64,000 nt of DNA, taken from assembly GCA_045657465.1 (NCBI GenBank), contig JAZOTD010000026.1, positions 1,156 through 65,155 of the forward strand, given 5' to 3'. Source of the stretch: Clostridia bacterium (lineage in GTDB: Bacteria; Bacillota; Clostridia; Christensenellales; UBA1242). Made by a program: the position numbers and the translations under genes. Below the pieces are notes generated by a model. It was not told the DNA's origin. It saw only the letters and a program-made list of their open reading frames with translations, and did not search any database. This document shows, piece by piece, positions 36,787 through 64,000 of this stretch; within the stretch, counting starts at the first letter, position 1, and every line of letters starts with the position of its first letter.

Positions 36787-37470
36787 ATGAAATTTAACAG
36801 CATCAATACACAATCAAAGGTTTCACAAAATAAAAAACTTTCACAAGAAAAGGTGAGAATGCTTGAGTTGTTTATAAAAACGATGAGTGACGAACAAAGA
36901 CATAAATTTTGGATAAAAACATTGCTTTCTGCGCAAAAAATTTTCCCAGAAATTATAAAAAGAGTCGACAATATCATTGAGCTTCAAGCATCGTCAGTGT
37001 CATTTGCTTCAGATATTTATGGAAGCGAAAATCCAACGATGAAACAATTTGAAAAAGTTATCAACCTAACTGACAGAAAATCATTTTTATTAAACTTAAA
37101 TCTAATTTCTCAACAACTCACTAACGACCTAAACAAAGACGACAAAGATTTTTTAGAGAAAAGATATATTCATGGCATGTCAGTCGAAACATTGGCCGAG
37201 GATTTTTCTATTTCAGTAAGAACTGTATATCGCAGAATTGACAAATTAATCTCACAGATACAAGACAATATTTTAAGGAAAAACTGGTCACTAAAATTTT
37301 TAGAATCACAAATCAAAAATGAATATTGGCTACAACAAAAATTTCTTTCTCATGTAACTGAATATTGCAAGAATTTGAACTATAACATGGCAAAGTTAAA
37401 AAATATTAAAGAAGATCATCATCACCATCATAACGAGGAAAATTTGGATAATTTAAATTTTGGCTCTTAG
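36787..37470 (+). CDS. Transcription regulator with a sigma-70 region-4-like HTH (ArpU/RinA-like late activator or minimal sigma-like factor)
   Basis: 227 aa. The C-terminal half reads ...DKDFLEKRYIHGMSVETLAEDFSISVRTVYRRIDKLISQI..., the region-4 / ArpU-type pattern. RBS GGAGGA. It is divergent from the giant gene across a 430-bp AT-rich spacer. The tail reads EDHHHHHNEE. Confidence 0.55.
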   Translation: MKFNSINTQSKVSQNKKLSQEKVRMLELFIKTMSDEQRHKFWIKTLLSAQKIFPEIIKRVDNIIELQASSVSFASDIYGSENPTMKQFEKVINLTDRKSFLLNLNLISQQLTNDLNKDDKDFLEKRYIHGMSVETLAEDFSISVRTVYRRIDKLISQIQDNILRKNWSLKFLESQIKNEYWLQQKFLSHVTEYCKNLNYNMAKLKNIKEDHHHHHNEENLDNLNFGS

Positions 37471-38421: not shown

Positions 38422-39858
38422 ATGAAAAAAAATCAAATTTTAAAATTATATCAACTAAAAAATGAAATCACCAGACGAAATATTTTGCCTCTGGCAAATT
38501 ACAACACTGGCAAAATTATTCACAAAAAACAATTAGCATTTCATCGATCTCAAAAAAGAAACAGGTGGGTGTTTGGCGGAAACAGAACCGGAAAAACTGA
38601 ATGTGGTGCCGTTGAAACAATATGGTTATCTCTTGGCTGTCACCCGTACAGAAAAAACAGACAATCAACAGAATGCTGGGTCGTAAGTCTTTCAACAAGA
38701 GTACAAAAAGAAGTTGCCCAAGCAAAAATATTAAAATATCTGCCGAAAACTAGGATATCAAAGATTATTATGGAATCAGGAAATGCATCAACACCTGAAA
38801 TGGGCATAATCGAATGCATTATAGTTAAAAATTATTTTAATAATTTTAGCAAAATCTGGTTTAAGTCTTGCGAGTCTGGCAGAGAAAAATTTCAAGGTTC
38901 TAGCCTTGATTTTGTGTGGTTTGATGAAGAACCACCAGAAGATATTTATAAAGAATGCCAAATGAGAGTTCTTGATAAAAACGGTGAAATTTTTGGAACA
39001 ATGACACCCCTTAAAGGACTCACTTTTATTTATGACGAAATTTATTTAAACAAAAACAATGATGATGAAGTTTTTTATTTATTTATGTCTTGGGAAGACA
39101 ACCCATATCTTAATCAAAAAGAAATAATCAGACTATGTAATTCTATGTCTGAAAGCGAGCTTGCAAGCAGAAAAGATGGCAAATTTGAACTAAAAGATTG
39201 CGGGCTTGTTTATCCCGAATTCGACACAACAATCAATGTCATTGAACCTTTTTCAATCCCTAAAGACTGGCAAGATACAATATCAATTGACCCAGGGCTT
39301 AACAATCCACTTTCTTGTCACTGGTATGCTAGGGATTATGACGACAACATTTATGTGGTCGCAGAACATTTTGAAGCAGGAAAAACCATTGAATATCATG
39401 CGGAAAAAATTAAAAACATCTCCGCCAAATTATCATGGAAAACCGCACCAAATGGCATGATTGAATCGCTTATTGATAGTGCTGCAAATCAAAAAACATT
39501 ATCATCACCAAAAAGTGTAACCGAACTTTTTTATGAAAATGGAATCATGGTAAATCCAAACGTCAACAAAGATTTACTTTCAGGAATATCAAAGGTGAAA
39601 ACCTACTTAAAAAACATTTCAGGAAAAACTAAACTTTATATCTTTTCTTCATGCACAAATTTGATTCAAGAATTTAAAACCTATCGTTGGAATGGCCATG
39701 ACGCACCAATAAAAAAAGATGACCACGCACTTGACGAACTTAGATATTACATAATGAACATAAATGCCAGTAAATCAATCTCAAAAACCCAAACAGAAAT
39801 TCAAAAACACAAAAAACTTTTATACAAAAATTTAAGAAGAGAACAATATGAAAAATAA
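38422..39858 (+). CDS. Phage terminase large subunit
   Basis: Walker A FGGNRTGKTECG, Walker B LDFVWFDEEPP, C-terminal nuclease-like ...KKDDHALDELRYYIM. The ORF track starts at a TTG at 38392. The ATG at 38422 (MKKNQ...) is the more likely start. Confidence 0.8.
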   Translation: MKKNQILKLYQLKNEITRRNILPLANYNTGKIIHKKQLAFHRSQKRNRWVFGGNRTGKTECGAVETIWLSLGCHPYRKNRQSTECWVVSLSTRVQKEVAQAKILKYLPKTRISKIIMESGNASTPEMGIIECIIVKNYFNNFSKIWFKSCESGREKFQGSSLDFVWFDEEPPEDIYKECQMRVLDKNGEIFGTMTPLKGLTFIYDEIYLNKNNDDEVFYLFMSWEDNPYLNQKEIIRLCNSMSESELASRKDGKFELKDCGLVYPEFDTTINVIEPFSIPKDWQDTISIDPGLNNPLSCHWYARDYDDNIYVVAEHFEAGKTIEYHAEKIKNISAKLSWKTAPNGMIESLIDSAANQKTLSSPKSVTELFYENGIMVNPNVNKDLLSGISKVKTYLKNISGKTKLYIFSSCTNLIQEFKTYRWNGHDAPIKKDDHALDELRYYIMNINASKSISKTQTEIQKHKKLLYKNLRREQYEK

Positions 39859-40300
39859 AAAATTTTGTCGTGACGATATCATTAAATTGTTAATAAAACT
39901 CGCTAATGGTTTTTATTATTCAGAAGAACAGTGTGAGTATGAAAAAGTGCAAAATAAATCAAATTTAAACAAAAAACAAGTAGATTATAATAATTTTGCA
40001 GAAAATTATTTAAATAATGTCAGGGGTTGCACACAATTAAATTTCTTGAGTGATATAGTTGAATTATCAAATGAAGAACCAAACAAACATGACAAAAACA
40101 ATGAGAACCTTACTCTTGTTAAAAAGAAAGTTGCCACGCATTTTATTTCGCCTGATATACACGCTGTTAAAATTCTTCTTGAAATTTTTTCTGAAAAGGT
40201 AGGTGATGATTCAATTGAAAATATGAGTGACGAAGAACTCTTAAAACTAAAAAACAACTTAATAGGAGAACTTTTAAATGAATCTAACAAAAACAAATAA
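39848..40300 (+). CDS. Hypothetical phage-module protein (150 aa), possibly small-terminase-like
   Basis: Overlaps the TerL 3' end by 11 nt. The SPDIHAVKILLEIF segment weakly resembles the C-termini of some small terminases. No firm motif. Confidence 0.35.
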   Translation: MKNKKFCRDDIIKLLIKLANGFYYSEEQCEYEKVQNKSNLNKKQVDYNNFAENYLNNVRGCTQLNFLSDIVELSNEEPNKHDKNNENLTLVKKKVATHFISPDIHAVKILLEIFSEKVGDDSIENMSDEELLKLKNNLIGELLNESNKNK

Positions 40301-40448
40301 AATTATAAAATGCGACACTGTTTTATGTCATCAAAATTCAAGCTATATTCTGTCAATCAATAGCTATAAGGGTGATATTTTTCTTTGTGACGCATGTTAT
40401 AAAAAAGTCAAAAATTTATTCAAAAAGGACAACTTGAAACATGAGTAA
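40278..40448 (+). CDS. Small (56-aa) zinc-ribbon-like protein, absent from the supplied ORF track because it is under 60 aa
   Basis: AGGAG at 40265-40269 lies 8 nt before the ATG at 40278. Translation: MNLTKTNKIIKCDTVLCHQNSSYILSINSYKGDIFLCDACYKKVKNLFKKDNLKHE (C-x4-C ... C-x2-C). The stop overlaps the portal start codon. Confidence 0.5.
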   Translation: MNLTKTNKIIKCDTVLCHQNSSYILSINSYKGDIFLCDACYKKVKNLFKKDNLKHE

Positions 40449-42288
40449 AGAAGAACATTTTTATTATAGTGAATTAGAAGATGAAATCATCATCAATTCA
40501 ATTCAAGCCGAGTTTAAGCAACGCCAAATTGAACGCAAACCTTATGAACTAATTTGGGAACTAAATATGAATTTTTATTTAGGTAATCAGTATAGTTATA
40601 TTTCAAACTCAGGTGAACTTCTCGACATCGAAAGAACATATATGTGGGAAAATCGCGAAGTATATAACCACATTGCACCAATCATTGAATCAAGACTCGC
40701 AAAACTCTCAAAGGTTAATCCAAAATTATATATCAAACCTGAGACCACAAATGAAAAAGATATCAATATTTCAAAACTATCAACATCAATACTAAACAAT
40801 TGTCTTGATCGCAACAATTTTAAAAAGATTATTTCAACTGCAACCCATTGGAGCGAAATCACCGGAACATCCTTTTATAAAATTAATTGGAATAGTGATA
40901 AAGGTAATATAATTGGAAATATTAACGGCAATATAATCAATGGAGGTGACGTTCAAATCTCTGCATGTTCACCATTCGAAATATATCCTGACTCAAACGA
41001 AGTTGCAAATATTGAAGATTGTCTATCAATTATTTATGCAAAAGCCATACCAATCAAACAAATTAAAGAAATATATAATATAGATGTAGATGCTGATGAA
41101 ATTGACACATTAGGCATTGACAACAAGGCATACTCATCACACATAAGTGGACGAAGCAATGTTTCTAAAATTATACATTCAACAAAAAATAACTACGCTT
41201 ATGTAATTGAAAGATATGAAAAACCTTCAAAAGAAAGACCAAATGGAAGATTAACAATCATTTGCAAAAATAAACTATTATATGATGGTGATTTGCCATA
41301 CAAACCATCAACTGAAAACACTTTTGTATATCCATTTATAAAACAAATCTCAAATAAGCAACTTTCTTGCTTTTGGGGGAGCAGTGTAATTGAACGATGC
41401 ATTCCAATTCAACGAGCTTATAACGCACTCAAAAACAAAAAACACGAATACATCTCTAGACTTGCAAGCGGGGTGTTAACAGTTGAAGACGGGTCGGTTG
41501 ATATTGACAATCTTGAAGATGAAGGTCTTGCACCTGGAAAAATTTTAGTTTATAGGAACGGATCGACTCCACCAAAATTTATGAACCCAGGAAGCATTCC
41601 AACAGAACTAGAAAAAGAAGAGGCTAGCCTACTTAATGAATTGAACAGCTTATCATGTATGAGTAATATTTCAACAAAATCAATTGTACCATCAAATATC
41701 ACAAGCGGCTCTGCCATTTCAATGCTAATTGAACAAGATGAAAGCAGGTTGTCACTCTGTGCAGAATATATAAGAAACTCAATTAAGCAGGTTGGGGTTT
41801 TTGTAATGAATCTTTTTAAAAATTATGTTACATCTCCAAGAATCAACAAATTAAAATTAACAAACGAAGAAGATGCAATTGTTTATTGGACAAATAATGA
41901 CATTACTGACAAAAACATCGATCTAGAAAATAATAACGAATTGCAAAAAAATCCAACAGAGCAGAAAGATTTACTTTTAACACTTTTTGAAAAAGGTTTT
42001 TTCTGCGATCAAAATGGCCACATTTCATCATCATATAAATCGCAATTAATTAACTCACTTGGAATTAAAAACATCAATATAGAAGATGACCTTTATGAAC
42101 TTCAAAAAAATAAGGCCAACGGCGAAAATCAAGAACCACAAAAAATAAGTCAACCATTAGAAATTGATGACCACAAAATTCACATTGAAGAACATACAAA
42201 ATTTATATTAACAACAACTTTAACAAAAGACCAATTAACCAAACTAACAAACCACATAAAACAACACAAACTTATGTCAAACAATTAG
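40441..42288 (+). CDS. Probable phage portal protein
   Basis: 615 aa, positioned just downstream of the terminase with only two small ORFs between, and followed by scaffold and capsid candidates. The call rests on position and size; no diagnostic motif was recognised. Confidence 0.6.
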   Translation: MSKEEHFYYSELEDEIIINSIQAEFKQRQIERKPYELIWELNMNFYLGNQYSYISNSGELLDIERTYMWENREVYNHIAPIIESRLAKLSKVNPKLYIKPETTNEKDINISKLSTSILNNCLDRNNFKKIISTATHWSEITGTSFYKINWNSDKGNIIGNINGNIINGGDVQISACSPFEIYPDSNEVANIEDCLSIIYAKAIPIKQIKEIYNIDVDADEIDTLGIDNKAYSSHISGRSNVSKIIHSTKNNYAYVIERYEKPSKERPNGRLTIICKNKLLYDGDLPYKPSTENTFVYPFIKQISNKQLSCFWGSSVIERCIPIQRAYNALKNKKHEYISRLASGVLTVEDGSVDIDNLEDEGLAPGKILVYRNGSTPPKFMNPGSIPTELEKEEASLLNELNSLSCMSNISTKSIVPSNITSGSAISMLIEQDESRLSLCAEYIRNSIKQVGVFVMNLFKNYVTSPRINKLKLTNEEDAIVYWTNNDITDKNIDLENNNELQKNPTEQKDLLLTLFEKGFFCDQNGHISSSYKSQLINSLGIKNINIEDDLYELQKNKANGENQEPQKISQPLEIDDHKIHIEEHTKFILTTTLTKDQLTKLTNHIKQHKLMSNN

Positions 42289-42297
42289 GAGAATAAT

Positions 42298-42888
42298 ATG
42301 GAAGAAATTTTAGAACAACCATCTCTTGAAACTGAACTAAATGACCATGGATTAGATTCAGCAAATCAAGAAGGCTCTATCTATGGAAAGTTTAAAGATG
42401 CAAAAACATTGCTTGATGCTTATAACTCACTTCAGGCAGAATTTACAAGAAAAAGCCAGAAATTAGCAGAATTTCAAAGAGAAAATGAAAATATTGCGGT
42501 TTTTAACAAAGAAGATTCACTTGATGAAATTTTAAAAGATGAAACAACTGACAAAGAGAAATATAAAAAGGAAATCACGGAGATTTTATCTACAAACAAT
42601 TTAGATAATCTGCCAAACAAGTATCATGTTGCTTTTAAAATTGCTAAAACTGTCGAGCAAAAAGTTGCAGACAATTTAAACAACATCCAATTTGTTGACG
42701 AGTATTTAACTAAAAACACTTCACTCAAAGAAAAAATAATTGGTGAATATTTATCAACTTTAAATAATATTTCAACCCCACCAAAAATGATTTCAGGCAA
42801 TCCTTCAACAATTCACTATTCAAATACTATTTCGCAGCCAAAAACATTACGTGAAGCGGGTGAAATATTTTCAAAAATGTTAAAATAA
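42298..42888 (+). CDS. Probable capsid scaffolding protein
   Basis: 196 aa, acidic, coiled-coil-like (GKFKDAKTLLDAYNSLQAEFTRKSQKLAEFQRE). Sits between the portal and capsid candidates. RBS AGGAG. Confidence 0.55.
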   Translation: MEEILEQPSLETELNDHGLDSANQEGSIYGKFKDAKTLLDAYNSLQAEFTRKSQKLAEFQRENENIAVFNKEDSLDEILKDETTDKEKYKKEITEILSTNNLDNLPNKYHVAFKIAKTVEQKVADNLNNIQFVDEYLTKNTSLKEKIIGEYLSTLNNISTPPKMISGNPSTIHYSNTISQPKTLREAGEIFSKMLK

Positions 42889-42897
42889 GGAGAATTT

Positions 42898-44070
42898 ATG
42901 ATTACATTATCAACAGCTGACAACGCGCTACGTGAAGTCTATCTTGGTGTTTTAGCAAACCAACTAAACACAACAATCAACCCATTACTTGCAAGAATCA
43001 ACCAAACAACATCAGATGTTTGGGGTAAGGAAATTAGAAAAATTGCTCCATATGGCATCAACGGTGGTATTGGTGCAGGAACAGAAGATGGAGCACTTCC
43101 AACAGCCTCTGCGACAAATTACGCACAATTTGTTTTGCCACTAAAAAACCTTTATGGAAAAATTGAAATTTCAGATAAAGCAATTAGAGCTTCTGAAAGT
43201 TCAACTGGTGCTTTTGTTAACTTGCTTAACTCTGAAATGGAAAATCTTTTAAAGTCTAGTGCATTTAACTTTGGAAGAATGCTCTATGGTGATGGTAGCG
43301 GTTCACTCGCAAAAACACTTAACAACACAACTGAATATATTGAAGTAAACACAACAACAAATTTAATTGAAGGAATGATTGTTGATATCGTTAATGATAG
43401 AGATATAATTGTTTATTCTGGAATTAAAATTGTATCTATTGACCGAATTAACAACAGGGTTTATCCAGCCTCAATGCCATGCGGAGCAGATGTTTTATAT
43501 GACACAGAATTCGATATCGTTGTTCAAGGCTCATACAAAAATGAAATTACTGGTCTTGGAGCAATCTTTTCAAACACTGGCAGCTTGTATGGTTTAGACC
43601 GTGAAACACACAAATGGCTTGTTCCATATATGAAAGATCATTCTGGTCAAGACATCACTGAAAATGCAATGCAAACAGCAATTGACGAACTTGATGAATA
43701 CACAAACAGCAAGGTTGACTTTATTGTTTGTTCTGCAGGTGTAAAGAGAAATTATCAAAACTATCTTGCATCATACAGAAGCAATATTGATGTTCTTAAT
43801 CTTGAAGGTGGCTTTAAAGCAATTTCTTATAACGGAATCCCAGTAGTATCTGACAGATTCGTTCCTGCAAAAACAATGTTCTTGCTTGACACAAAAGAAT
43901 TCAATATGCACCAACTTTGCGATTGGAAATGGCTTGAAAGTGAAGATGGTAGGGTAATTAAACAAACTTTAAATAAACCTACTTATCAAGCAACACTTGT
44001 AAAATATGCTGACCTCATCTGTAACAAACCAGCTGGACAAGCAAAACTTTCAAATGTGAAAGAATCTTAA
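42898..44070 (+). CDS. Probable major capsid protein (HK97-fold expected)
   Basis: 390 aa, directly after the scaffold-like gene, with a strong RBS AAGGAG and a strong hairpin after it. The call rests on position and size. Confidence 0.6.
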   Translation: MITLSTADNALREVYLGVLANQLNTTINPLLARINQTTSDVWGKEIRKIAPYGINGGIGAGTEDGALPTASATNYAQFVLPLKNLYGKIEISDKAIRASESSTGAFVNLLNSEMENLLKSSAFNFGRMLYGDGSGSLAKTLNNTTEYIEVNTTTNLIEGMIVDIVNDRDIIVYSGIKIVSIDRINNRVYPASMPCGADVLYDTEFDIVVQGSYKNEITGLGAIFSNTGSLYGLDRETHKWLVPYMKDHSGQDITENAMQTAIDELDEYTNSKVDFIVCSAGVKRNYQNYLASYRSNIDVLNLEGGFKAISYNGIPVVSDRFVPAKTMFLLDTKEFNMHQLCDWKWLESEDGRVIKQTLNKPTYQATLVKYADLICNKPAGQAKLSNVKES

Positions 44071-44079
44071 TATAATCAC

Positions 44080-44107
44080 ATATCCACATGATTTTTCATG
44101 TGGATAT
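44080..44107 (+). terminator. Perfect 11-bp stem-loop after the capsid gene (attenuator or partial terminator)
   Basis: ATATCCACATG-ATTTTT-CATGTGGATAT. There is no long T-run afterwards. Confidence 0.45.
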
Positions 44108-44126
44108 ATTGATAAAAGGACGATTT

Positions 44127-44513
44127 ATGAAGTTTAATGAAAAATATTTTAAAGAATATAAAGATATGTTTAATGTTTATAATTTAATAACTAAAATAAA
44201 CCCAAACTATAAACTATTTCGCAATAACAAAACAAACACATTTATCATTGTAAATTCTGCAAAAAATAATCAAATTTGCTTAAATTTTGATAATTTTAAT
44301 CAAAATATTTTAAAAACTCTGCAATATACAAAAATAGAAAATTCAAAAAATGTGTTTAATGATATTGAAAAAAACAATCTAATAATAAAAGAAAACTTTA
44401 ACAAAACACTTAAAAAACAAACCACTGATAAGATGTGTGAAATTGCAAACTTTTCAAAACGAGTAAACCGTCTTTCAACAAATTCAATTAATAAAATTAT
44501 AGGAGCAGACTAA
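44127..44513 (+). CDS. Hypothetical phage-module protein (128 aa)
   Basis: RBS AAAGGA before the ATG at 44127. The ORF-track start at 44088 lies inside the hairpin. Asn/Lys-rich with no motif recognised. Confidence 0.45.
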   Translation: MKFNEKYFKEYKDMFNVYNLITKINPNYKLFRNNKTNTFIIVNSAKNNQICLNFDNFNQNILKTLQYTKIENSKNVFNDIEKNNLIIKENFNKTLKKQTTDKMCEIANFSKRVNRLSTNSINKIIGAD

Positions 44514-45085
44514 TGTTAAAAAATATTTTAATTAAATGCGCCGAACTCTTAAATAGAAATGATATTGTTAAATCTTTAAAATCAATTGATAAAATCGACT
44601 CCATTCTTGATGAAACTTTAAAAAGTGATGTTTATAGGCTGATTAATTACTTTAATTTTACTTCTAACACAATGTTTGAAAATTATTTTGATTTAACTCA
44701 CAGCGAACAATTAAGTTCTAATAGTTCAAACATTATCAACTATTCAAGTTTTTCATACACTCCTGTCAAAATTTTATCAGTCAAAGATACTAACGGAAAC
44801 GAAAATGTTGCAACTGTTTTATCTACACATATATTAACACATAAAGCGCGCGCAACTTATACAATCTCTTATGCATATATTCCACATGAACTAAAAAATC
44901 TAACAGATGAACTTGAATTTCCTGAAAGATTGTCAAAGATAATTTGTTATGGAGTGGTTAGTGAATTTTTTGCATGCAAAAACTGTTATGAACAAAGTGA
45001 GTTCTGGAAAAATAGATTTATGTATGAAATATTTAAATTTAAAACAAGAAAGGAAAGACGTGTTAAGTCAACATTTAAATTATGA
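44513..45085 (+). CDS. Hypothetical phage-module protein (190 aa), candidate head-completion or connector protein by position
   Basis: RBS AGGAG. The start overlaps the previous stop (TAATG), and its TGA stop overlaps the next ATG (ATGA). Confidence 0.45.
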   Translation: MLKNILIKCAELLNRNDIVKSLKSIDKIDSILDETLKSDVYRLINYFNFTSNTMFENYFDLTHSEQLSSNSSNIINYSSFSYTPVKILSVKDTNGNENVATVLSTHILTHKARATYTISYAYIPHELKNLTDELEFPERLSKIICYGVVSEFFACKNCYEQSEFWKNRFMYEIFKFKTRKERRVKSTFKL

Positions 45086-46461
45086 GTGATATAAAACGAT
45101 TGCTTTTTTGTGATTTTAAACCAGACATAAAAAATCAATTCTCAAAAAACTCACTGGTTTGTAATAATTTTTATAATATTTCGTTATCAAATGGCACAAT
45201 TGATTCAAATTTAAATACATGCGATCTAATGAAAACATTTCTAACCGAATCACAATATGAAAATTTTACAAAACTATATGGCAGTTTATATGCAAACATT
45301 TCACGATTTATCCCATATCAATATGTCGATGAATCTGGGAGTTTAAAACTTAGAATATTTGCTATTGATAAAAATAACAGTATAAATGAATATAATGCGG
45401 ACGAAAGCAATTTGATAAATTTTAACACTACCTTGTCGGGCAATCCAAAGATTGTTTATCATAACAACTCAGTTTATATTTTAGATGGAACATCAACCAT
45501 TTATGTTGTTTCAGGCCCACAAAACCTGGCATTTTACCAAAACACAAAAAAAATTTCATATGTTAAATTTTATCGAGACAAAACTTATTACATGCTCAGC
45601 GATAAGCCAAATACAATTTATGTGGCAACTGACATTGAATTTGAAAAATTGCTAACTTCTGACCCACCAAATGAATCCCTGTTAATTGACATCAATTATG
45701 GCAATTTTCAAGATGTATTAATTTGTGATGATTATATTTATATTATTCAGGATTATGGCATTGCAAAAATACAAAAAACAAAAGATGAAACATATTTTAC
45801 ATATTTTAAAACCCACACAAAAATCATCACCGGAACTGCAAAATCAGTTAACAACTTAATTCTTTTTTATTCAGCAGCTGGACTATACAAATTTGACGGA
45901 AATAAAATCACACCTTTATTTGTCGATCTTTTTAATCTTTGCAATAAGCAAGGCATTGCTGAAACATTCAACAATAAATATTATCTATCAACACAAATGT
46001 ATACAAACAAAGAAACGATTAACTGTTTGATTGAAATTAATCTCTTTAACGACACTTATGTAATTTTTTCAATTGGAAAAGTTTGCCTGCTCGAAACCGT
46101 TGAATTACATGATTTTTATAACTTAATTATCACAACCTGTGATGATGGTTTTTTTAACTCTCTATCAATGGGTTCAAAATTTAACAATCACACATGTAAA
46201 AAGTATGTCGAGTTTAACCCTGTATTTTTAGATAATTATGATGAAAAATCAATTGTTAAGCTAAATATTTTTGCTGAAGGAGAGTTTAGATTCAAAATAA
46301 TTTCAAACAATGGTGATTCCATTTCATATAATGTTTCAAACAGTTTTTCAGCTAACAACATATCACTTTTTGGTCAGCATTTTAAAATTGAAATTTCTAG
46401 TATTTCAAACTTCAAGATTTATTCAATTTATTTGGAGTATAAAACAATTAATCATGATTAA
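45082..46461 (+). CDS. Hypothetical phage-module protein (459 aa), beta-rich
   Basis: Translationally coupled (ATGA). Recurrent hydrophobic strand-like segments (SVYILDG, TIYVVSG, TIYVATD, YIYIIQD, LILFYSAAGLYKFDG) suggest repeated beta blades. No family recognised. Confidence 0.45.
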   Translation: MSDIKRLLFCDFKPDIKNQFSKNSLVCNNFYNISLSNGTIDSNLNTCDLMKTFLTESQYENFTKLYGSLYANISRFIPYQYVDESGSLKLRIFAIDKNNSINEYNADESNLINFNTTLSGNPKIVYHNNSVYILDGTSTIYVVSGPQNLAFYQNTKKISYVKFYRDKTYYMLSDKPNTIYVATDIEFEKLLTSDPPNESLLIDINYGNFQDVLICDDYIYIIQDYGIAKIQKTKDETYFTYFKTHTKIITGTAKSVNNLILFYSAAGLYKFDGNKITPLFVDLFNLCNKQGIAETFNNKYYLSTQMYTNKETINCLIEINLFNDTYVIFSIGKVCLLETVELHDFYNLIITTCDDGFFNSLSMGSKFNNHTCKKYVEFNPVFLDNYDEKSIVKLNIFAEGEFRFKIISNNGDSISYNVSNSFSANNISLFGQHFKIEISSISNFKIYSIYLEYKTINHD

Positions 46462-53136: not shown

Positions 53137-53143
53137 ATAATCA

Positions 53144-53456
53144 GTTGGTTAGACAATCGCGCCATTTTGGTGAGGAAAGTCCGAGCACCACAGAACAATC
53201 ACGCTTGATAACGTCAAGCCAAGGTAACTTGAGGAAAAGTGCAACAGAAATATACAGCCTTCGGGCAATGGTGAAAAAGTGAGGTAAGAGCTCACTCGAG
53301 ACATTGGTGACAATGACTCGCTGTAAACTCCGTGAGGTGCAAGGTGTGGAACATATGGGCTGTTCGTCCGTTCCCGTGACCGCTTGAGCATGGTGGTGAC
53401 ACCATGACTAGATTGATGATTGTCTTAAATGACAGAACTCGGCTTATAGACCAACC
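53144..53456 (+). ncRNA. rnpB: RNase P RNA (bacterial, type-A-like landmarks, compact at about 313 nt)
   Basis: P4 strands GAGGAAAGTCCGAGC (53172-53186) and ACAGAACTCGGCTTATAG (53432-53449). Also AGTGCAACAGAAA, GGTAAGAGCTCAC and GTAAACTCC. P1 pairing is GTTGGT (53144-53149) / ACCAAC (53450-55). It has its own promoter and terminator. Confidence 0.9.
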
Positions 53457-53485
53457 AAAAACGCATACCTAGTATGCGTTTTTGT
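53457..53485 (+). terminator. Rho-independent terminator after rnpB
   Basis: Stem ACGCATAC / GTATGCGT, loop CTA, T-run. Confidence 0.75.
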
Positions 53486-62206: not shown

Positions 62207-62238
62207 AAAACAGGCGAAAATAATCGTCTGTTTTTTAT
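62207..62238 (+). terminator. Rho-independent terminator after hemW
   Basis: Stem ACAGGCGA / TCGTCTGT (one G-T wobble), followed by T7. Confidence 0.65.
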
Positions 62239-62267: not shown

Positions 62268-62296
62268 TTGACAAATTCTTTTAGCAGTAATAAGAT
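62268..62296 (+). promoter_or_regulatory. Candidate sigma-A promoter of the hrcA-grpE operon
   Basis: TTGACA (62268-62273), 17-nt spacer, TAAGAT (62291-62296). It overlaps a degenerate CIRCE-like half-site. Confidence 0.45.
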
Positions 62297-62304
62297 ATAC
62301 AGTG

Positions 62305-62331
62305 TTAGCACTCAAAAAACCAGTTTGCTAA
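62305..62331 (+). promoter_or_regulatory. CIRCE operator (HrcA binding site)
   Basis: TTAGCACTC-N9-GTTTGCTAA versus the consensus TTAGCACTC-N9-GAGTGCTAA. The left arm matches 9/9 and the right arm 7/9. It lies about 55 nt upstream of hrcA. Confidence 0.65.
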
Positions 62332-62384: not shown

Positions 62385-63416
62385 GTGGATTTAAGTGAAA
62401 GAAAAAAGAAAATTTTAAGTGCAGTCATTGAAACAAATGTCAAAAGCAAATCTGCAGACGCGGTTTCAAGCAAGCAACTTCAAGAAGAATATTTGCCAAA
62501 AATCAGTTCGGCAACGATTCGAAATGAGCTAAACGCTCTTGAAGAAATGGGCTATCTCACACATCTGCACACATCATCAGGCAGAGTTCCAACAAAAGAA
62601 GGTTATGAAAAATACATTTCTGAACTCATGCACGAAAGAAAACTTACTGCAAAAGAAAAAGAAGTTATTCAGTCAAATTTTGCAAACAAGCTTGTTAGCA
62701 TACGTGACATAATAGAGCGTTCTGCAACAACAATTGCAAAAGCAACAAACTATGCTTCGGTTGTTTATTCTGGGCCATCACTAAACGCGGTGGTTAAAGA
62801 CATCAAGCTTTATCCAGTTAGCAAAACAACACAGCTTGTGGTTGTTGTGACAAGCGAAAAGGTTATCAATGAACTTGCAAACCTTGGAACAAATGACGAA
62901 GATGAACTTAAAACAGCTAGTGACATCTTAAAAGAACTTTTTGAAAACAAACCGCTTGAACTTCTAAAAAACAATGATTTTAGAGATCAGGTAGTAACTA
63001 GCGAACTCAAAAAATATAAAGAAGTCTTCGACAAAGTTCTTGATATTATTTCAGCAAGCAACAACAATGTTTCAAACCACATGACAATCGCTGGAAAAGA
63101 CAAACTTATCGAATATCCAGAGTTTAATGATATTGATAAACTTAAAAAGACAATGACAGCTCTTGAAAAAACTGAAACAATTTTGCCAATCATCACATCT
63201 GGCGAAAACCTTGAACTTTCAATTAATATTGGAAGTGATGGGTCAGATCTTTCAGAGTGTTCAGTTGTTACAATTTCTTGCAACATCGGTGGTGAGTCAA
63301 AACTGACAGCTGGCGTAATTGGACCTATGAGAATGGACTATCCAAAAGCAATTTCAGTTTTGAAAGAAGTTGCTCAAACGATTGAAAAAACATTGCAAGA
63401 TAAAGGAGATGAATAA
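62385..63416 (+). CDS. hrcA: Heat-inducible transcription repressor HrcA
   Basis: (V)DLSERKKKILSAVIE...ISSATIRNELNALEEMGYLTHLHTSSGRVPT is the canonical HrcA winged-helix N-terminus. A GTG start at 62385, preceded by GAGGGA, is preferred over the ORF-track GTG at 62373. Confidence 0.9.
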   Translation: MDLSERKKKILSAVIETNVKSKSADAVSSKQLQEEYLPKISSATIRNELNALEEMGYLTHLHTSSGRVPTKEGYEKYISELMHERKLTAKEKEVIQSNFANKLVSIRDIIERSATTIAKATNYASVVYSGPSLNAVVKDIKLYPVSKTTQLVVVVTSEKVINELANLGTNDEDELKTASDILKELFENKPLELLKNNDFRDQVVTSELKKYKEVFDKVLDIISASNNNVSNHMTIAGKDKLIEYPEFNDIDKLKKTMTALEKTETILPIITSGENLELSINIGSDGSDLSECSVVTISCNIGGESKLTAGVIGPMRMDYPKAISVLKEVAQTIEKTLQDKGDE

Positions 63417-64000
63417 TGAAAGACAAAAAAACAGAATGCTGTTGCAACAAAGAACATAACAAAAATTGCAAATGCACTCCAGAAAATCATTGTGGTTGCT
63501 ATGACGGCAAACCTTGCAAGTGTGGTGATGACGGATGTGGATGCGACAAAGAACATAACAAGAACTGCAAATGCACTCCAGAAAACCACTGCGGTTGTTA
63601 TGATGGCAAACCTTGCAAATGTGGTGATGACACAAAGCAACTTGAAGACAAACTTTCACAAACCGAAAAAGCACTTCAAGAAGCACTTACAAAAGCAAAT
63701 CAATATCTTTCAACCGCTTCTTATTACAAAAACGAAGCAGAGTCACAAAAGAAAGATTTTGAAAGATATAAAGAACGCAACAAAAACATATTAAATGATG
63801 CAGTTGTTGAAGCAAATGAAAAAATTGCAAAAAAACTGCTTCCAATAATCGACAATTTCGACCAAGCAATGGCACACACAACAAGCGATGTTATGAAGGG
63901 ATTTGAAATGATTTATTCATCACTTGTTGCTTGTTTAAAAGATATGAACATCGTTGAAATTGAAGCAGTGGGTGAACTTAATCCAGAATATCACAACTGC
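63416..64000 (+). CDS. grpE: Nucleotide exchange factor GrpE (3' end outside the window) with a Cys-rich tandem-repeat N-terminal extension
   Basis: ATG at 63416 overlaps the hrcA stop (TAATG), with AAGGAG 7 nt upstream. The frame is open to the window end and so is absent from the ORF track. The conserved core is ...LLPIIDNFDQAM...IVEIEAVGELNPEYHNC. The N-terminus is MKDKKTECCCN + 2 x (KEHNKNCKCTPENHCGCYDGKPCKCGDD). Confidence 0.85.
   Translation, partial: MKDKKTECCCNKEHNKNCKCTPENHCGCYDGKPCKCGDDGCGCDKEHNKNCKCTPENHCGCYDGKPCKCGDDTKQLEDKLSQTEKALQEALTKANQYLSTASYYKNEAESQKKDFERYKERNKNILNDAVVEANEKIAKKLLPIIDNFDQAMAHTTSDVMKGFEMIYSSLVACLKDMNIVEIEAVGELNPEYHNC
63449..63631 (+). repeat. Two 84-nt in-frame tandem repeats (63449-63532 and 63548-63631) separated by a 15-nt GCGCD linker, inside grpE
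   Basis: Direct comparison of the two units shows 8 nucleotide differences. All are synonymous third-position changes, so the encoded 28-aa units are identical. Confidence 0.9.

Follow-up and report, generated by a model that had tools for sequence, protein, structure and literature searches.

The 64,000-nucleotide stretch of contig JAZOTD010000026.1 from a Clostridia bacterium (the window, meaning the whole stretch of DNA that was analyzed) ends within a grpE gene, which encodes the nucleotide exchange factor of the DnaK/Hsp70 chaperone. Residues 1 to 72 of the predicted protein form a tail rich in cysteine in front of an otherwise ordinary GrpE body. On balance, this tail appears to be a genuine, translated and selectively kept metal-thiolate (metallothionein-like) module that is attached to the tip of the GrpE stalk and would bind soft metals. 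Metal binding taken by itself, through the thiolates of CxC pairs together with His, is likelier than the reading as a whole. A further proposal, which is tentative, is that such proteins make up an undescribed class of GrpE in gut and rumen Clostridia, in which a new 8-Cys unit would make the DnaK/Hsp70 cycle respond to metal load or oxidative stress.

The partial GrpE product is matched by PF01025 (Pfam) over residues 77-194 at a score of 62.7 bits, where the cut-off is 25.8 (E = 4e-17), and the full-length protein is estimated from relatives to have about 237 residues. Its N-terminus reads MKDKKTECCCN-KEHNKNCKCTPENHCGCYDGKPCKCGDD-GCGCD-KEHNKNCKCTPENHCGCYDGKPCKCGDD-TKQLEDK... and is followed by the GrpE body. 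Cys accounts for 17 of the 72 tail residues (23.6%), arranged as eight CxC pairs and one extra Cys in a CCC run; given a background of 0.9% Cys in the 29 large open reading frames (ORFs) of the window, the probability of finding at least 17 Cys in 72 residues is about 2e-19. The only aromatic residue is one Tyr per 33-residue unit, with neither Phe nor Trp. CxxC spacing does not occur in the window tail, including the CxxCxGxG motif of DnaJ and the CxxC motif of Hsp33, and the tail is not a zinc center of either of these types. A preliminary description of this DNA had started grpE at an ATG overlapping the hrcA stop codon and preceded at a distance of seven nucleotides by AAGGAG, had counted 17 Cys in the extension and had found no ATG between the repeat and the conserved core. 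All of these points hold (Table 1), and the last extends to GTG and TTG, none of the three codons being present in frame between codons 1 and 152, so that a product without the tail would also lose the whole stalk helix. The same start geometry is found in relatives, where GGAG-type sites precede the equivalent start. Judged from these features, the Cys-rich tail belongs to the sole plausible reading frame and start.

The tail is repetitive, and its repeats bear the mark of selection on the peptide. Two 84-nucleotide stretches (63449-63532 and 63548-63631) encode an identical peptide of 28 residues and differ at eight nucleotides, all of them synonymous third-position transitions. By the Nei-Gojobori method, the pair has 13.3 synonymous and 70.7 nonsynonymous sites with eight synonymous differences and no nonsynonymous ones, and the probability that all eight would be synonymous is about 1.5e-4 when only transitions are assumed. 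This agrees with the preliminary description, which had reported two identical 28-residue repeats with synonymous-only differences. The actual repeat period is 99 nucleotides, or 33 codons (Tandem Repeats Finder), and a repeat search pairs 63436-63532 with 63535-63631. The unit consensus, C-x-C-[ND]-KEHNKN-CKC-TPENH-CGC-YDGKP-CKC-GDD-x, contains eight Cys in four CxC pairs and two His. Compared over all 99 nucleotides, the units differ at 14, giving nine synonymous and three nonsynonymous codon differences, and the nonsynonymous ones all lie in linkers.

Relatives show the same restriction. When the 19-residue core CKCTPENHCGCYDGKPCKC is compared among seven units from four genomes (units 1 and 2 of the window, units 1 to 3 of L001, and those of L040 and L041), every differing pair has no nonsynonymous changes against four to eight synonymous ones. 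The three units of L001 have identical DNA, and in the three-unit strain, whose GrpE core has a synonymous divergence (dS) of 0.15 from the window, the 57-nucleotide unit cores are identical, indicating recent amplification or conversion. The proportion of nonsynonymous differences (pN) is comparable in the N-terminus (0.03-0.06) and in the GrpE core (0.003-0.07), the N-terminal value being the lower one against L040 and L041 and the higher one against L001. Synonymous change in this comparison is close to saturated. By these measures, purifying selection acts on the tail peptide no less strongly than on the GrpE core, in keeping with the earlier claim that the repeat is translated and selectively constrained.

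GrpE N-termini of model organisms are free of Cys, and the preliminary description had taken this to be usual for GrpE; in the clade of the window the rule is a Cys-bearing N-terminus. The survey of related N-termini for CxC repeats that it had suggested was made in a first homologue set, in which Cys were counted in the segment of about 30 residues before the stalk helix in the best 120 of 214 GrpE homologues. Of these 120, 106 have at least one Cys, 93 at least three, 25 at least six and 10 at least 15, while 14 have none. The commonest form has four Cys in the arrangement CC-x4-7-C-x5-7-C. Some relatives carry a His-rich or mixed tail at the same position (for example ...CKNHSKDCHEHHGGKCKELE... 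and the HEHQNQGEH type), and His-rich or poly-His variants are found in L005, L008, L014, L015, P0091, P0114 and P0120. Close relatives, namely the P0001 90% cluster and the neighboring P0002-P0008 clusters (87-92% identical, P0002-P0008 having one unit), always carry the unit in frame, as one copy in proteins of 204-208 residues, two copies in 231-243 residues or three copies in 264-271 residues. The preliminary description had also credited GrpE N-termini with acting as thermosensors, a role that in E. coli GrpE belongs to a long helix pair and not to the disordered N-terminus.

More distant GrpEs follow the same trend. An Acutalibacteraceae metagenome-assembled genome (MAG) encodes a GrpE of 309 residues (L024 1381-2310) whose tail of about 135 residues consists of six tandem CDCGDDCDCHDHE repeats together with HHHRHHHGH; from its sequence, this tail is an independent expansion of another Cys/His unit at the same position. 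A search from the Acutalibacteraceae GrpE returned 236 further GrpEs, and when the 112 best that allowed anchoring were counted, 10 or more tail Cys were present in 104 and 20 or more in 62, with a maximum of 33, in a set that is biased to Cys-rich tails because it came from a Cys-rich query. The cores of some are just 27-35% identical to the query, yet they share C-x-C-T-x-E-[ND]-x-C. Tail columns with a Cys majority are conserved at 0.88, compared with 0.48 for other tail columns, in a 92-sequence alignment, which is the pattern expected of metal ligands. As far as these sets reach, N-termini rich in Cys and/or His are the norm in the GrpE clade of the window and in more distant Clostridia GrpEs.

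Two observations concern how these genes are called and assembled. In the P0022 cluster (P0153, P0155-P0157, P0161 and P0162), several calls of 172 residues start at a Met right after the Cys region (MKVEVDELNK...); they may be truncated or mis-called, or they may reflect a real alternative start, and the lineage of the window lacks this Met. In bovine-gut runs, the unitigs that short reads give for related strains break inside the repeat. An independent run (X1 record 4) shows a unit-unit junction, and in run X2 one unitig goes on past a unit with GEEEGCGCDKEH and so enters another unit. Assemblies of this gene may under- or over-count units.

The unit is also found outside GrpE. A search of a 5.8-billion-protein set with the tail only gave four candidates and two matches, a yield that the word index and the composition filters probably held down. 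The matches are free proteins of 68 and 72 residues (P0121 and P0122) that end in HNPNC[KH]CTPE[NH]HCGCYDGKPC[KN]C, in which 21-22 of 23 residues are those of the GrpE unit; the corresponding DNA differs from that of the GrpE unit at 11-15 of 69 nucleotides, mostly synonymously. An exhaustive profile-free scan with P0121 adds P0123 and P0133, which have the same two-part build, and P0125, a protein of 53 residues that is in effect one GrpE-type unit including its GCGC prefix. The free unit-bearing proteins P0121, P0122, P0125 and P0133 have 53-77 residues. The genes for P0121, P0122 and P0133 stand between greA and a thioredoxin-reductase-like (trxB-like) gene, immediately upstream of the latter, on contigs of 38-44% G+C whose neighboring genes look proteobacterial. 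The gene for P0125 adjoins one for an FKBP-type peptidyl-prolyl isomerase. The N-terminal half of the two-part proteins, KCDCSEDDxCGCxYPNN, is widespread and occurs also as an N-terminal extension on peroxiredoxins P0129 and P0130. Going by gene neighborhoods and fusions, the free relatives of the GrpE unit keep company with thiol-redox enzymes, and the presence of the unit in GrpE and in free proteins of very different genomes marks it as an autonomous shared module.

Apart from the tail, the protein is a GrpE by its PF01025 score, by the stalk-bundle-beta architecture modeled for an orthologue and by its location in an hrcA-grpE-dnaK-dnaJ operon; 24 GrpE models of NCBIfam match P0001, a full-length relative, none of them reaching its equivalog cut-off. 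AlphaFold models the one-unit orthologue P0004 (89% identity) with helices at residues 41-125 and 128-147 and beta strands at 150-207, at a predicted local distance difference test (pLDDT) score above 90; the stalk helix takes over at residue 41, immediately behind the Cys module. In two AlphaFold2 runs (90- and 92-sequence alignments) the Cys-rich tails themselves stay at a pLDDT of 36-55 and show no secondary structure; a disordered model of this kind is expected for a domain that would fold only around metal, but it is weak evidence. The metallothionein-like character that the preliminary description had given to the extension stands as regards composition and behavior, with 24% Cys in CxC pairs separated by His, Asp, Glu and Lys and no structure in the metal-free model, and the Cys content falls within the range of about 15-30%, as CxC, CC or CxxC, that is used to recognize metallothioneins. 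It does not stand as regards family: the tail resembles a metallothionein by composition and behavior and is not, by the searches described below, a member of a curated metallothionein family.

The module as proposed consists of two 8-Cys/2-His units, with four CxC pairs each, fused to the distal tip of the stalk helix. The CxC thiolates, aided by His, would bind Zn(II), Cu(I), Cd(II) and possibly Ni or Co in clusters, and the tail would be unstructured when metal-free. GrpE is a parallel dimer formed through its stalk helices, so two tails should lie adjacent to each other at the stalk tip, where they could share clusters or form disulfides on oxidation. The result would be a heat-shock-inducible sink for metals and oxidants, with a capacity that grows as units are added; the polymorphism of one to three units would find its explanation in this. 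The preliminary description had favored a sensing role; variation from one to three units among close strains is accounted for by the capacity of a buffer or sink no less well than by a precise sensor. The stability of the stalk, or the availability of the N-terminus to DnaK and its role in substrate release, could also depend on metal and redox state. Should the more tentative proposal of a responsive GrpE be correct, the dimeric stalk might be stapled in a metal- or disulfide-dependent manner or the action of the N-terminus on DnaK might be gated, and gain and loss of repeats would tune capacity between strains.

Several points weigh against a metallothionein-like module. Neither a metallothionein nor any other family was matched by the tails of the window and its relatives in Pfam and NCBIfam at E <= 10, and the window tail matched no PDB sequence at E <= 10, although the composition filters of HMMER may hide tail matches. 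The non-Cys residues TPENH and YDGKP are invariant in the unit along with the Cys, as would sooner be expected of a definite mini-fold or an interaction motif than of a metallothionein with its plastic sequence. That 14 of the 120 close homologues have no Cys implies that GrpE as such can function without the tail, and the homologue set from the Acutalibacteraceae GrpE is biased to Cys-rich members by its query.

Canonical GrpE (PF01025; E. coli, Geobacillus and Thermus) resembles the window GrpE in domain, stalk, bundle and beta domain, and its hrcA-grpE-dnaK-dnaJ operon with CIRCE (controlling inverted repeat of chaperone expression) is that of the window and its relatives, whereas the canonical N-terminus in model GrpEs is short, acidic, disordered and free of Cys. 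Metallothioneins, including bacterial ones, share with the tail about 24% Cys as CxC, hydrophilic spacers, no predicted metal-free structure, Cys columns that are kept while spacers vary, and multiplication of tandem domains; in the window the unit is a domain of GrpE, and elsewhere it also occurs as small free proteins. Metallothioneins differ in that the GrpE unit contains one Tyr and two His, has non-Cys residues that are invariant within the lineage and matches no metallothionein family. The Runella protein TrxA, a thioredoxin-metallothionein chimera, binds metals (PMC13578184) and resembles the tailed GrpE in these respects and in the fusion of a metallothionein domain to a housekeeping protein. 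The His/Cys tail of the Helicobacter pylori GroES protein HspA binds, stores and sequesters nickel (PMC3856676). HspA is likewise a housekeeping, stress-induced co-chaperone that bears, at one terminus, a dispensable extension with many metal ligands, but it is a GroES rather than a GrpE, its tail is C-terminal and dominated by His rather than N-terminal and dominated by CxC, and there is no sequence relationship; its tail is confined to Helicobacter, while those of GrpE occur across many lineages of Clostridia. Redox-regulated GrpE homologues are known in humans (GRPEL2, through a Cys87 disulfide; PMC6089081) and in yeast (Mge1, through oxidation of Met155; PMC3596242). Like these two, Hsp33 and the DnaJ zinc center respond to oxidation through sulfur residues, and the position at or near the dimeric stalk is similar, but in GRPEL2 and Mge1 the responsive residue is one Cys or one Met of the conserved body, and neither has an appended multi-Cys domain.

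One alternative, with HspA as a direct precedent, is that the tail is a dedicated metallochaperone or store for Ni, Co or Zn, like HspA, SlyD or HypB, and not a regulator of the DnaK cycle. The His-rich and poly-His tails at the same position in related GrpEs and the FKBP-type isomerase gene beside that of P0125 point in this direction, and such a tail could supply metal to hydrogenase, carbon monoxide dehydrogenase, urease or other enzymes. This explanation, including the supply of metal to such enzymes, is unlikely. The window tail is dominated by Cys (17 Cys to 4 His) with CxC pairs, which are more typical of Zn, Cu and Cd thiolate clusters than of Ni sites, and no gene for a Ni enzyme or its maturation stands beside grpE in the window or in the loci of relatives.

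A slightly lower probability is given to a metal-free thiol module, which would serve as a sacrificial oxidant sink or as a disulfide switch (the GrpE dimer might, for instance, be cross-linked in the manner of GRPEL2) and be re-reduced by the thioredoxin system. The free unit proteins immediately upstream of a thioredoxin-reductase-like gene in L043, L044 and L046, the fusion of the sub-motif KCDCSEDDxCGC to peroxiredoxins, the redox regulation of GRPEL2 Cys87 and of Mge1, and the gut and rumen hosts, which are presumably anaerobes for which oxygen is a stress, are all in line with it. However, the Cys-free, His-rich tails of relatives could not act through disulfides, and CxC pairs, a hallmark of metal ligation across known proteins, form strained disulfides. 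A thiol role is also compatible with the metal-thiolate module, as zinc-thiolate sites are themselves redox switches, as in Hsp33.

It is improbable that the tail binds an iron-sulfur cluster, perhaps one that bridges protomers, and so makes GrpE sensitive to oxygen or iron: the very Cys-rich tail of a presumably anaerobic gut or rumen Clostridia host would suit such a role, as would the eight ligands that the minimal 4-Cys form offers in a parallel dimer, but CxxC or CxxCxxC-type spacing is absent from the window tail, the context is strongly charged and hydrophilic, the number of Cys ranges from 0 to 33 with some variants having only His, and no iron-sulfur family matches the tail. Least probable by far is a neutral low-complexity expansion or a segment outside the mature protein that arose from a wrong start or an assembly artefact, for which the 172-residue calls of the P0022 cluster and the broken unitigs might be cited, but against which stand the lack of an earlier alternative start that would spare the stalk helix, the saturating synonymous change with no nonsynonymous change, the conservation of the unit across different species and in stand-alone genes, the unit-unit junction in an independent run and the 14 differences per 99 nucleotides that make the units resolvable by reads; on the selection data, this explanation is effectively excluded.

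The setting of grpE supports its assignment to the heat-shock response. The gene order in the window is lepA-hemW-terminator-promoter-CIRCE-hrcA-grpE, and dnaK and dnaJ follow downstream in the near-identical or related contigs L001, L002 and L040; lepA-hemW-hrcA-grpE-dnaK is an ordinary gene order in Firmicutes. The exact HemW protein of the window has no database entry, and the contigs of relatives were reached through homologues of GrpE. The CIRCE-like operator is the single match in the 64 kb (at two mismatches), where 0.02 are expected by chance. Sigma-70-like sites are no more numerous in the region than in shuffles, so the promoter is recommended by its position only. The mechanical ORF of hrcA begins at GTG 62373, and the 343-residue calls of relatives and a GAGGG just upstream favor the start given in Table 1. 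From this arrangement, grpE sits in a class I heat-shock operon controlled by HrcA through CIRCE. The preliminary description had asked whether the downstream dnaJ retains its own zinc finger. All four CxxCxGxG motifs are present in DnaJ of L040 and L002 (89% and 65% identical), the nearest relatives with dnaJ on the contig, so the GrpE tail is an addition and not a relocated or replacement DnaJ finger; the DnaK of relatives has no Cys-rich tail. The adjacent radical S-adenosylmethionine gene hemW was considered as a modifier of the tail and rejected, as the same gene order is found in loci, including L003, where the GrpE tail has no Cys.

Table 1. Coordinates of grpE, its Cys-rich tail, the heat-shock operon and other features
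Feature	Position	Strand	Remarks
grpE, first 195 codons	63416..64000	+	ORF runs past the window end at 64000
grpE start ATG	63416-63418	+	hrcA stop TAA 63414-63416 overlaps it (TAATG)
Shine-Dalgarno AAGGAG	63403..63408	+	7-nucleotide spacer to grpE ATG
Cys-rich N-terminal extension	63416..63631	+	72 codons, 17 Cys, 4 His
Example peptide from GrpE Cys-rich tail			NCKCTPENHCGCYDGKPCK
Repeat unit 1, 33 codons	63437..63535	+	CCCN-KEHNKN-CKC-TPENH-CGC-YDGKP-CKC-GDDG
Repeat unit 2, 33 codons	63536..63634	+	CGCD-KEHNKN-CKC-TPENH-CGC-YDGKP-CKC-GDDT
Start of canonical GrpE body	63632..64000	+	Long stalk helix, LLPIIDNFDQA motif, beginning of helical bundle
Terminator-like hairpin and T-run	62207..62234	+	After hemW; separates heat-shock operon from upstream genes
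Sigma-70-like promoter TTGACA-17-TAAGAT	62268..62296	+	Upstream of hrcA; 10/12 matches
CIRCE-like HrcA operator	62305..62331	+	TTAGCACTC-N9-GTTTGCTAA; just downstream of -10; 2 mismatches
hrcA, heat-shock repressor	62385..63416	+	Likely start GTG 62385, 343 residues; PF01628, E = 1e-40
Free Cys-rich genes, 68-77 residues	L043 3814-4020, L044 1662-1880, L046 886-1119		KCDCSEDDxCGCxYPNN half and GrpE-type unit
Giant ORF	4100-36355	-	10,751 residues (32 kb); lipoprotein-like N-terminus (…FVCFASIFFVACSG…)
227-residue ORF	36787-37470	+	Extracytoplasmic-function sigma/helix-turn-helix region-4-like matches; local His cluster; divergent from adjacent giant ORF
Phage-like gene run	39848-46461	+	P22-like portal 40441-42288 (E = 3e-18); weak SU10-type major capsid match 42898-44070
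Bacterial class A RNase P RNA	53141-53462	+	242 bits

The window has a G+C content of 32.6%, and the genome records closest to it are MAGs of uncultured Clostridia from the human gut and from ruminant digestive tracts; related DNA is present in bovine gut and faecal metagenomes. Elsewhere in the window, the giant ORF has no Pfam match in its first or last 3000 residues, the phage-like gene run is probably a prophage or a remnant of one, and no tRNA gene was found in the whole 64 kb.

GrpE is among the most studied of the co-chaperones, and its N-terminus is taken to be a short tail, disordered and of a function that is under debate. A 2025 GrpE review (PMC12987570) calls the region disordered and treats its role as a pseudo-substrate as debated; a targeted reading of it met no mention of zinc or metal. 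Full-text literature searches, this review included, gave no description of a Cys-rich, zinc-binding or metal-binding GrpE, and the inspected reports that join 'cysteine-rich' with GrpE concern DnaJ or unrelated proteins, as judged by their titles and abstracts. In databases the tailed proteins are named simply 'nucleotide exchange factor GrpE', and some gene callers skip the tail. On this showing, the tailed GrpE is a known co-chaperone with an undescribed, widespread and probably metal-binding N-terminal domain. If the reading proposed here is correct, the bacterial Hsp70 cycle would gain through the module an input from metal or redox state, for which the sole examples known so far are single-residue switches in mitochondrial homologues, and the module would contribute a new unit to the bacterial metallothioneins, which are few and poorly sampled. 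The variation from one to three units in close strains and from 0 to 33 Cys across lineages would offer a natural experiment on how gut and rumen Clostridia meet metal and oxygen stress.

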